In this document: positions 62,670 through 63,643 of the stretch, one piece after another
Position numbering within the stretch: the stretch's first letter is position 1
Layout of the letters: every line of letters starts with the position of its first letter
The notes under the pieces: generated by a model
The model's database searches: none
Seen by the model: only the letters and a program-made list of their open reading frames with translations
Told to the model about the DNA's origin: nothing
IMG/VR virus record: IMGVR_UViG_3300032893_000002
Span: 46,668 to 110,667 of that record
Length of the DNA: 64,000 nucleotides
DNA from: a virus
Direction: 5' to 3' (one strand)
Made by a program: the position numbers and the translations under genes

Positions 62670-62880
62670 TTTGCTGAACTACTAATTTGCCGTTTACGAT
62701 AGAAATACAGAATGCTGTACGATCATGCTCTCTATACACACATGTCCAGAAACAAGTATCAGACATTCTCTCTAATCTATATAGATCGCCTGAAATAGAA
62801 ACGTCTTCTACAGTACCATCTTTTTTATCCTTGCGTACGGCATTCCAGACTTTAGGCGCTTTTCTTTTCATCTGCTGCAT
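62638..62880 (-). CDS. Hypothetical protein
   Basis: ORF only; overlaps its neighbours. Confidence 0.25.
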   Translation of the reverse strand: MQQMKRKAPKVWNAVRKDKKDGTVEDVSISGDLYRLERMSDTCFWTCVYREHDRTAFCISIVNGKLVVQQIEDSIGCADE

Positions 62881-63643
62881 CCTCGGACCAGTGGATTGGA
62901 ATTAACGTTTTCATTAATGCTCTGCCTTCAGGCGATTCAAACGTTGGCGCTGCTATACTTTTCCAGCTAGGATAAGGTTTCGCTCCGCTATCATAATATA
63001 CCAATCCTCCACGCTTATACCGATCGGGATGATTATTCCAGTTGTCGCCTTTTGCAAAGACCATTTCTTGAACTTGGGAACAATCTTTTCCGTGTAATTC
63101 TTTATGCGAATAGTGATGCTGTCCTAGCATCAAAATGCTATTTCTCACAGCGTCATGCTGCCTGCCAATAAAGTAGTTCTCGACTTCAATATGATCTGGG
63201 ATTGTAAATACACGCGCATCAAATAAAGGCATTCCAGCTTGTCCACGCAATGATTGGAAAAATCCAGTTGCCATAGCGGCACTAACGGATGCGATTTTTT
63301 GAATATTGCCATCAAAGAATGCTTCAGTACTTGGCTTGGCAAAATCAGTCATTAAAATAGAAATTTCATCAGACTGAGTATATGCTATCTGCGCGCCCAT
63401 TATTTCCGCTACTATCGATTCAGCTGTTTTATCCATATCATGCATGAATTGTAAATCATAGGGTCGTTTCATAGTGCGACAGTAAGAATGAAATGCTTTT
63501 CCATCAATTCGAAGAATAGTATAAGTACGTCGGGGCAGAAAGTAGCGTGTTCTATCTTCGTAGCGTTCTTTCATTCGGGTATTAATTGCATCACTTGCCA
63601 TCTTATTTTCTATCCCATCCTTTTTCTTTACAAAGTTCTGCAA
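62852..63643 (-). CDS. Thg1-like protein (tRNA-His guanylyltransferase family; 3'-5' nucleotidyltransferase)
   Basis: ILRIDGKAFH and AYTQSDEISIL match the Thg1 catalytic motifs (RLDGRNFH, GQSDE). C-terminal KRGG also conserved. Confidence 0.6.
   Translation of the reverse strand: MQNFVKKKDGIENKMASDAINTRMKERYEDRTRYFLPRRTYTILRIDGKAFHSYCRTMKRPYDLQFMHDMDKTAESIVAEIMGAQIAYTQSDEISILMTDFAKPSTEAFFDGNIQKIASVSAAMATGFFQSLRGQAGMPLFDARVFTIPDHIEVENYFIGRQHDAVRNSILMLGQHHYSHKELHGKDCSQVQEMVFAKGDNWNNHPDRYKRGGLVYYDSGAKPYPSWKSIAAPTFESPEGRALMKTLIPIHWSEDAADEKKSA

Follow-up and report, generated by a model that had tools for sequence, protein, structure and literature searches.

To our knowledge, the polymerases of the Thg1 family are the only ones that work in the 3'-to-5' direction, and a role for the family is established only in the maturation of eukaryotic tRNA-His and in the editing of amoebal mitochondrial tRNAs. 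Here we describe a gene for a Thg1-like protein (TLP) carried by a phage, located in a stretch of 64,000 nucleotides (hereafter the window, 64 kb) from the virus record IMGVR_UViG_3300032893_000002. Bacterial and archaeal TLPs carry out a strictly templated 3'-5' addition on tRNAs of any identity, with activation by ATP or GTP. A kinetic preference for 5'-truncated tRNAs is a property of MaTLP and of the TLP of Bacillus thuringiensis (BtTLP). BtTLP prefers 5'-truncated tRNAs by 5- to 160-fold, acts on tRNAs besides tRNA-His, and has been seen to form activated App- and Gpp-RNA intermediates. In this enzyme R28 touches the incoming nucleoside triphosphate (NTP), D30 is a metal ligand and D75 a second one (PMC3701042); K43 forms a hydrogen bond with N3 of the activating ATP, and its substitution by alanine (K43A) slows adenylylation about 10-fold while GTP-dependent activation is unaffected. 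Regarding phages, a Thg1 homologue was flagged in 2013 as gp143 of the Bacillus phage Bc431v3, and a 2021 survey of jumbo phages (Iyer et al.) found Thg1 homologues in an RNA-repair context together with RlaP, a CCA-adding enzyme and PTH2; the 2019 TLP review makes no mention of phages. RlaP itself adds one or two nucleotides to damaged RNA 3' ends, restoring tRNAs trimmed by "smart" ribotoxins (PMC12776372).

The TLP gene lies within a string of tightly packed genes on the minus strand. A previous sequence-only reading had assigned a Thg1-like 3'-5' nucleotidyltransferase to positions 62852-63643, an open reading frame (ORF) of 263 amino acids starting at a TTG. This ORF proved to be real. 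It belongs to the minus strand (the earlier reading named no strand), the plus-strand translation of the interval being riddled with stops, and its start has to be moved. The stop codon of the upstream gene is followed by one base and then by an ATG at 63601 (TAAGATG), and the nearest database homologue (P0001, 93% identity) is also 249 amino acids long and is covered end to end (100%). This junction and the shared length make the ATG at 63601, and not the TTG at 63643, the most likely true start, which gives a gene of 249 amino acids at 62852-63601 (-). The three motifs reported earlier, RIDGKAFH, TQSDE and KRGG, were all found in the minus-strand protein, as follows:

62852-63601, minus strand: TLP gene, predicted bacterial repair-type 3'-5' RNA polymerase (Pfam, PHROG, PDB, AlphaFold2 (AF2), Foldseek, and the ratio of nonsynonymous to synonymous substitution rates, dN/dS)
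63488-63511, minus strand: RIDGKAFH, residues 31-38 in the 249-residue numbering; R31 corresponds to BtTLP R28 and D33 to BtTLP D30, invariant in 30 homologues
63455-63469, minus strand: KRPYD, with R46 in place of the activation-site K43 of BtTLP (alignment to BtTLP)
63365-63379, minus strand: TQSDE, residues 75-79; S77, D78 and E79 correspond to BtTLP S74, D75 and E76
63005-63016, minus strand: KRGG, residues 196-199, conserved C-terminal motif (K196, R197, G198; homologue alignment)

The protein matches the Pfam Thg1 profile (PF04446) with 86.6 bits against a cutoff (gathering score) of 29.2 (E=1.8e-24), over profile positions 3-130 of 130, and PHROG 4717, named "tRNA-His guanylyltransferase", with E=4.2e-69. 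Its best sequence match among solved structures is BtTLP (PDB 4KGK, E=2.7e-42), those to the Thg1 proteins of Candida, yeast and human and to the TLP of Methanosarcina being far weaker. As many as 6776 database proteins match it at E<=1e-10; no matching model was found in NCBIfam. An AF2 model built from 30 homologues reached a predicted local distance difference test (pLDDT) of 89.6 and a predicted template modelling score (pTM) of 0.85. When this model was compared with the PDB using Foldseek, the top 32 matches were all Thg1 or TLP structures (E<=7e-14), the best of them BtTLP (template modelling score 0.84/0.90, root-mean-square deviation 1.9 Å), and the next ones, at E>=7e-4, were the distantly related Cas10 and GGDEF/cyclase palms.

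We used the sequence alignment to 4KGK to transfer the functional residues that the structure paper on BtTLP (PMC3701042) describes. E15, R31, K102, R130 and R147 correspond to E12, R28, K99, R131 and R147 of the BtTLP nucleotidyl-transfer site, and D33, D78 and E79 to the active-site carboxylates D30/D75/E76 of BtTLP and D29/D76/E77 of hTHG1. All of these residues, together with S77, are invariant across the 30 homologues; within KRGG, whose aligned counterparts are KRG in BtTLP and KKG in Candida Thg1, G198 is invariant and K196 and R197 are at least 90% conserved. Since the residues map to those of BtTLP and the top Foldseek hits are Thg1/TLP structures, we found neither a loss of the metal-binding Asp/Glu residues nor an unrelated fold. 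Together, these results confirmed the earlier identification: the gene encodes a genuine, intact Thg1-like protein of the bacterial BtTLP type. By analogy with the characterised family, the encoded protein would be catalytically competent and is predicted to perform 3'-5' addition.

The assignment to TLPs and not to Thg1 proper comes from three features. The bit score was 148 against BtTLP, compared with 58 against Candida Thg1 and 37 against human Thg1. The segment RQHDAVRNSILM aligns without gaps to RQQDASKNSISM of BtTLP, whereas Candida Thg1 has a 9-residue insertion at this place, and the eukaryotic HINNLYN motif/insertion is absent from the protein in its alignment to Thg1 and BtTLP. In addition, Met158 (M158 in BtTLP), the one mapped residue that varies among the 30 homologues, occupies the position where ScThg1 has the activation-step Asn161 (N161). 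Because HINNLYN is absent, Met stands for Asn161 and the score against BtTLP exceeds that against any Thg1 by about 90 bits, the protein is, judged from its sequence, a repair-type TLP of the bacterial/archaeal kind and not a eukaryote-type Thg1. Homology would thus predict a template-dependent addition that favours 5'-truncated tRNAs.

The active site shows one deviation from BtTLP. The position of BtTLP K43 (K44 in ScThg1) is occupied here by R46, preceded by K45, and the conserved lysine is absent. Arginine is found at this position in 90 of the 120 closest homologues and lysine in 22. Since the K43A substitution spares GTP-dependent activation in BtTLP, this variation suggests at most an altered preference for the activating NTP, not exclusion from the family; the clade could be GTP-activated.

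The comparison of the TLP gene with its 90%-identical relative in locus L089 gave a dN/dS of 0.055 at a dS of 0.61, and therefore the gene is under purifying selection. Its immediate neighbours, all in the same orientation, are the following:

63603-63908, minus strand: Cys-rich, zinc-ribbon-like ORF of 101 amino acids, upstream of TLP and translationally abutting it (94% identical, syntenic in L089)
62638-62880, minus strand: ORF of 80 amino acids overlapping the TLP 3' end (87.5% identical, syntenic in L089)
62382-62669, minus strand: ORF of 95 amino acids (88% identical, syntenic in L089)
62264-62385, minus strand: deletion remnant (pseudogene) of the RNA-repair nucleotidyltransferase RlaP (blastn/tblastn against L089, three-frame translation)
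61783-62274, minus strand: PTH2-type peptidyl-/aminoacyl-tRNA hydrolase of 163 amino acids with a C-terminal extension (Pfam PF01981, E=4.7e-13)
61384-61770, minus strand: protein of 128 amino acids downstream of PTH2 (44% identical to ORF 5763-6146 of locus L090, in the same relative position)

No Pfam or PHROG match was obtained for the ORFs of 101, 80, 95 and 128 amino acids. The PTH2 gene, located 578 nt downstream of TLP, is further supported by the PDB entries for Bit1/Pth2 (E=3e-8), with the NCBIfam Pth2 models scoring below cutoff, and its product is 75% identical to the PTH2 of L090. The GGAGG ribosome-binding site of this gene sits in the 3' end of the RlaP remnant. What is left of RlaP are its first ~21 codons (MTKSLVVRMKFGSHLYGTNTP) and its last ~20, brought together in different frames; a stop interrupts the latter piece, and compared with L089 the loss amounts to ~865 nt. 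Two PTH2 hydrolases had been listed in the sequence-only reading, and only the one at 61783-62274 is detectable: tblastn, phmmer --max, relaxed Pfam scans of small ORFs and iterated profiles revealed no second copy in the window. A promoter and terminator scan of positions 59000-64000 was uninformative, as promoter-like sites were fewer than in shuffled sequences.

The relatives of this locus indicate how the arrangement may have arisen. In L090, whose TLP is 71% identical, the genes for TLP, RlaP (PF10127) and PTH2 are contiguous in a tight operon, followed by homologues of the 128-residue ORF and of an SMC-like ATPase of the window. L089 contains the zinc-ribbon ORF, TLP and the two small ORFs as in the window, and then a gene of 78 amino acids, absent from the window, and a full RlaP (also PF10127). 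Based on the L090 operon, the RlaP of L089 and the remnant found here, the ancestral cassette would be TLP, small ORFs, RlaP and PTH2, and this phage has lost RlaP. The tRNA repair and quality-control toolkit suggested by the sequence-only reading is backed at the level of the family, by the L090 operon and by other loci described below; in the window itself it is curtailed, with RlaP deleted and no ligase, kinase or CCA-adding enzyme in the 64 kb.

We surveyed 80 IMG/VR loci, out of at least 539 viral contigs with a TLP relative, plus annotated phages. RlaP adjoins TLP in L019, L024 and L052; in L019 the gene order is CCA-adding enzyme, RlaP, TLP, and in L024 the TLP gene is surrounded by Rnl1-like and Rnl2-like ligases, a 3'-5' exonuclease, RlaP and a metallophosphatase. 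An NgrRnl-type RNA ligase abuts TLP in L011, where a CCA-adding enzyme is also present. The identity of the ligases was verified for L024 (Pfam) and L011 (PDB NgrRnl), other ligase matches, from jackhmmer only, being putative; the "ligase" match of L042 was discarded, as it had no match in the PDB. A kinase is found beside TLP in L050 and in mycobacteriophage KashFlow, and the Bacillus phage Goe8 carries RtcB 3 kb from TLP. On the side of tRNAs, genes lie within 10 kb of TLP in 19 of 60 loci, with none nearby in the other 41, and in 7 loci TLP is located inside or beside a large tRNA array. No PTH2 was detected when the window neighbours were searched by tblastn against 84 loci (L090 not among them). 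Thus, the association of TLP with repair genes is recurrent yet present in a minority of the loci, and since it was counted without a background control, we take this linkage as supportive and not as statistically established.

Genes for tRNA-His occur in the arrays beside the TLPs of L006, L010, L021, L023 and L025, and in five of six of them the extra 5' nucleotide G-1 opposite C73 is already encoded. As a separate observation, the tRNA-His genes at 6348 in L006, 4058 in L010, 9809 in L023, and 3668 and 3749 in L025 are preceded by AAATG, the final G being the encoded G-1; that of L021 differs in having a T at -1.

From what was observed (membership of the family, its fold, conserved residues, purifying selection and linked genes), we infer an enzymatic activity, a substrate and a role in counter-defence as follows. 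The phage TLP probably functions in the templated repair of tRNA 5' ends, as part of a phage RNA-repair repertoire. Using two metal ions bound at D33 and D78, the enzyme would activate an RNA 5'-monophosphate with ATP or GTP, or use a 5'-triphosphate directly; the 3'-OH of the incoming NTP, selected because it forms a Watson-Crick pair with the opposing (3') strand in the acceptor stem, would then attack the activated 5' end, and removal of pyrophosphate would end the addition. In this manner missing 5' nucleotides of tRNAs could be rebuilt in the 3'-to-5' direction. RlaP would add nucleotides at the 3' end and PTH2 would strip the peptidyl or aminoacyl group from the tRNA, so that TLP, RlaP and PTH2 might jointly cover both strands of the acceptor end. 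Such a cassette may preserve a working tRNA pool in the infected cell, probably against ribotoxins of the host or of competitors, and the phage studied here would have a reduced version of it, with RlaP deleted and TLP and PTH2 intact and co-oriented.

Several points weigh against 5'-end tRNA repair as the function of this gene. The cassette of the window is incomplete, as RlaP is only a remnant and searches of the 64 kb detected neither an RNA ligase nor a polynucleotide kinase, RtcB or a CCA-adding enzyme. An enzyme partner for repair is found in only ~16 of the 80 IMG/VR loci, and the linkage with PTH2, according to iterated profiles, is limited to the window and L090. The activation-site lysine is replaced by Arg46. 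The sequence-only reading had counted a phage tRNA as part of the toolkit, and one is present; this sole confident tRNA is an amber suppressor located 16 kb from TLP and, because its acceptor stem is perfectly paired, it is no obvious substrate for 5' repair. From the literature, the in vivo substrates of bacterial TLPs themselves are unresolved (2019 TLP review), and we found no published experimental study of any phage TLP. Furthermore, the cuts of the known defence tRNases fall in the loops of the anticodon, D or T arms, in the 3' strand of the acceptor stem or in the CCA. None of these cuts is reported to produce a tRNA shortened at its 5' end whose template strand stays whole, which is a gap in the counter-defence argument; a counter-defence role of TLP is hypothetical, though plausible. 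The retron PtuAB was considered as a nuclease clipping tRNA 5' ends, but the paper on it did not bear this out.

The family name and the usual annotation, "tRNA-His guanylyltransferase", would point to another function, namely the maturation or maintenance of phage or host tRNA-His by adding G-1 opposite C73. TLPs have been reported to be able to perform this reaction, and tRNA-His genes do lie in arrays beside the TLPs of the five contigs mentioned above. However, no tRNA-His was found in the 64-kb window, 41 of the 60 TLP loci have no nearby tRNA, and five of the six neighbouring tRNA-His genes encode G-1 in the bacterial style, therefore making a post-transcriptional addition unnecessary. 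As, in addition, BtTLP strongly favours the repair of truncated tRNAs over -1 addition and the protein has neither the Thg1-specific motif nor the corresponding Asn, we regard this function as unlikely. We consider it quite unlikely that the substrate is not a tRNA at all, and that the enzyme extends, repairs or App-/Gpp-activates transcripts with recessed 5' ends, small RNAs or primers. This idea draws on TLP4 of Dictyostelium, which acts on non-tRNA RNAs, on the open substrate range of the family (2019 TLP review), on the App-/Gpp-RNA intermediates observed with BtTLP, and on the many phage TLP loci that have no tRNAs or tRNA enzymes; the recurring partners, on the other hand (CCA-adding enzyme, PTH2, tRNA arrays, ligases of the anticodon-repair type and RlaP), point to tRNA, and the closest characterised homologue repairs tRNA 5' ends.

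It could also be argued that TLP is a decaying passenger, irrelevant in this phage and heading for loss like RlaP, which was destroyed by the ~865-nt out-of-frame deletion; the 78-residue gene is also gone, and there is no ligase partner in the window. The intact frame with every catalytic residue, the dN/dS of 0.055 at dS 0.61 against L089 and the operon-style coupling to the flanking genes, which has been kept, make this very improbable.

Within the preferred reading, tRNA 5'-end repair, a more specific possibility is that the ligase-free combination TLP-(RlaP)-PTH2 constitutes a distinct counter-defence module for the tRNA acceptor end, a proposal that we regard as doubtful. PTH2 would remove an aminoacyl or peptidyl group, or an acyl group added by a toxin, RlaP would restore the 3' nucleotides, and TLP would resynthesise the 5' strand using the 3' strand as template; the module might in this way undo the harm done by immune nucleases or toxins directed at the acceptor stem or the CCA end. 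No phage pathway is known to have been shown to repair lesions of this class.

The tRNA content of the window comprises one confident gene and one weaker element:

46497-46600, minus strand: tRNA with a CUA anticodon (amber suppressor), confident (Rfam 59.2 bits), missed by ARAGORN
47069-47135, minus strand: element resembling a tRNA, below threshold (Rfam tRNA 26.3 bits; gathering score 29)

The CUA tRNA is a type II, Ser-like tRNA, with an unusually long variable arm (~34 nt, with a stem of 8 bp); position 73 is a G (G73) and the CCA is encoded. The viral contig L085 (87-93% identical) has conserved it, with a change from G·U to A-U that preserves the pairing of the variable arm. The second element begins directly after the PHROG-matching part of the ORF at 47046-47462; its acceptor stem is perfectly paired over 7 bp and its T-arm is canonical, but its "anticodon" arm consists only of a 4-bp stem and a 5-nt loop, and its folding is no better than that of shuffled sequences (z = -1.26). 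A degenerate tRNA, a decoy or coincidence could each account for it. The CUA tRNA, together with five ORFs that continue in frame past a TAG, raised the possibility of TAG recoding, which was rejected because these are ordinary "TAG ATG" boundaries with plausible N-termini; TAG terminates 12 of the 71 ORFs of the window. Such "TAG ATG" boundaries, with the next ATG 0-3 nt downstream in the same frame, are located at 1812-1817, 11678-11683, 52058-52063 (-) and 18485-18493. Fusion products made by suppressor read-through at these junctions are conceivable; nothing supports them. Also of note, tRNAs with a CUA anticodon lie near TLP in L041 (7938-8093), which has two of them, 277 nt downstream of TLP, and in L068 (2790-2862). 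An association between TLP and suppressor tRNAs, seen on these two contigs, is possible.

The remaining content of the window is that of a phage, with GTA-like distal tail proteins (DUF2460, baseplate hub, NlpC/P60), a head-tail connector, homing endonucleases and inteins. A megablast search of positions 60000-64000 against GenBank phages returned no match, and this phage has no close cultured relative. No record came up for the 249-residue protein in an exact look-up, and a 50-mer from its gene had no exact match in IMG/VR. Other features are:

55323-55841, minus strand: DarG-like macro-domain protein (PDB 5M3I/5M31, E~1e-6; PHROG 335)
53777-54265: QueD
52061-53668, minus strand: QueE (radical SAM), split by a Hint/HNH intein
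49156-51798, minus strand: DnaB-like replicative helicase, split by a LAGLIDADG intein
58724-59458: GIY-YIG/HNH homing endonuclease
20753-29056, plus strand: very large structural ORF of 2767 amino acids
31831-37290, plus strand: very large structural ORF of 1819 amino acids
6832-11484, plus strand: very large structural ORF of 1550 amino acids

The macro domain and the Que genes had also been invoked as parts of the tRNA toolkit. The macro-domain protein is indeed present, but it is DarG-like (NCBIfam DarG 3e-13, below cutoff; no Pfam match) and has no evident link to tRNA; its gene shares 74 nt with the 3' end of the one for an AAA+ ATPase (55768-56787). DarG acts as a DNA ADP-ribosyl glycohydrolase, and the macro-domain gene is a candidate for counter-defence against DarT (DNA ADP-ribosylation). 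Among the Que genes, QueD and the intein-containing QueE are there and no others were found in the window; in phages this pathway usually serves 7-deazaguanine modification of DNA. The ORF of 2767 amino acids, which precedes the DUF2460, hub and NlpC/P60 distal-tail genes, is for this reason probably the tape-measure protein, a reading by size and position only, under which the tail would have to be exceptionally long. Five or six glycosyltransferase-like genes (GT2; one weak GT34 match) and a glycine-rich-domain protein lie inside the virion structural module, at 401-2600 and 17636-19977 (+), which suggests glycosylated virion proteins or modification of the host surface. Genes with a Tlde1 (L,D-transpeptidase-like toxin) domain, for a papain-family C1 peptidase and for a SprT-like metalloprotease were found at 41630-42079, 42934-43701 and 45458-45835 (+), and one for a lipoprotein-type SPFH/Band-7 protein at 59957-60871 (-).

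Even though Thg1-like proteins had been described as rare in phages, we found TLP homologues in 160 of 50,697 GenBank phage records, mostly annotated already as tRNA-His guanylyltransferase, and in at least 539 IMG/VR contigs; the family has its own PHROG and was treated in the 2013 and 2021 papers. Phage TLPs are thus uncommon yet recognised and routinely annotated. Because they had already been flagged and annotated, the gene described here does not represent a new kind of system and is a fairly ordinary, well-supported further example, distinguished by its RlaP-deleted cassette and by the Arg46 variant of its clade. With its intact frame and a cassette that is naturally "RlaP-minus", it joins a group of phage TLPs under strong purifying selection in RNA-repair islands, which are circumstantial evidence that 5'-end repair of tRNAs matters in infection and which offer a genetically tractable route to the natural lesion and to the nuclease that makes it.

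Compared with the known systems, the phage TLP is closest to BtTLP (4KGK/4KGM), with 33-37% identity in structural alignments, the same length class, the same carboxylates, NTP-binding Arg/Lys residues and Met158, and no Thg1-specific insertion; it differs in R46 for K43, which is the majority state of its clade, and in a C-terminal tail of ~45 residues beyond the region aligned by phmmer. With the eukaryotic Thg1 of yeast, Candida and human (3WBZ, 3OTB, 5XOX) it shares the fold, the two-metal site and the three-step 3'-5' chemistry. In contrast to these enzymes, against which it scores 37-58 bits and not the 148 obtained with BtTLP, it lacks HINNLYN, has Met for Asn and, by analogy with BtTLP, would depend strictly on a template and show no specificity for the anticodon of tRNA-His.

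The T4 pair Pnkp/Rnl1 is likewise a phage-encoded means of restoring damaged tRNA, and a similar context is found in L024 and L011, where TLP stands beside ligases of the Rnl1, Rnl2 or Rnl5 type. However, the T4 enzymes heal and seal a nick in the anticodon loop, whereas TLP would act by templated 5' addition on a lesion of the acceptor stem, and neither a ligase nor Pnkp was found in the window. As for the annotated phage homologues of PHROG 4717 (Bc431v3 gp143, Goe8, Eldridge, Caulobacter CcrPW, Lak phages and jumbo phages), all those from cultured phages are less than 60% identical to this TLP, and the cassette described here differs in having lost RlaP; they nevertheless belong to the same family (29-45% identity by tblastn), occur as a sporadic accessory gene in medium-large phages, and share the same proposed role in RNA repair, beside PTH2, RlaP and the CCA-adding enzyme.

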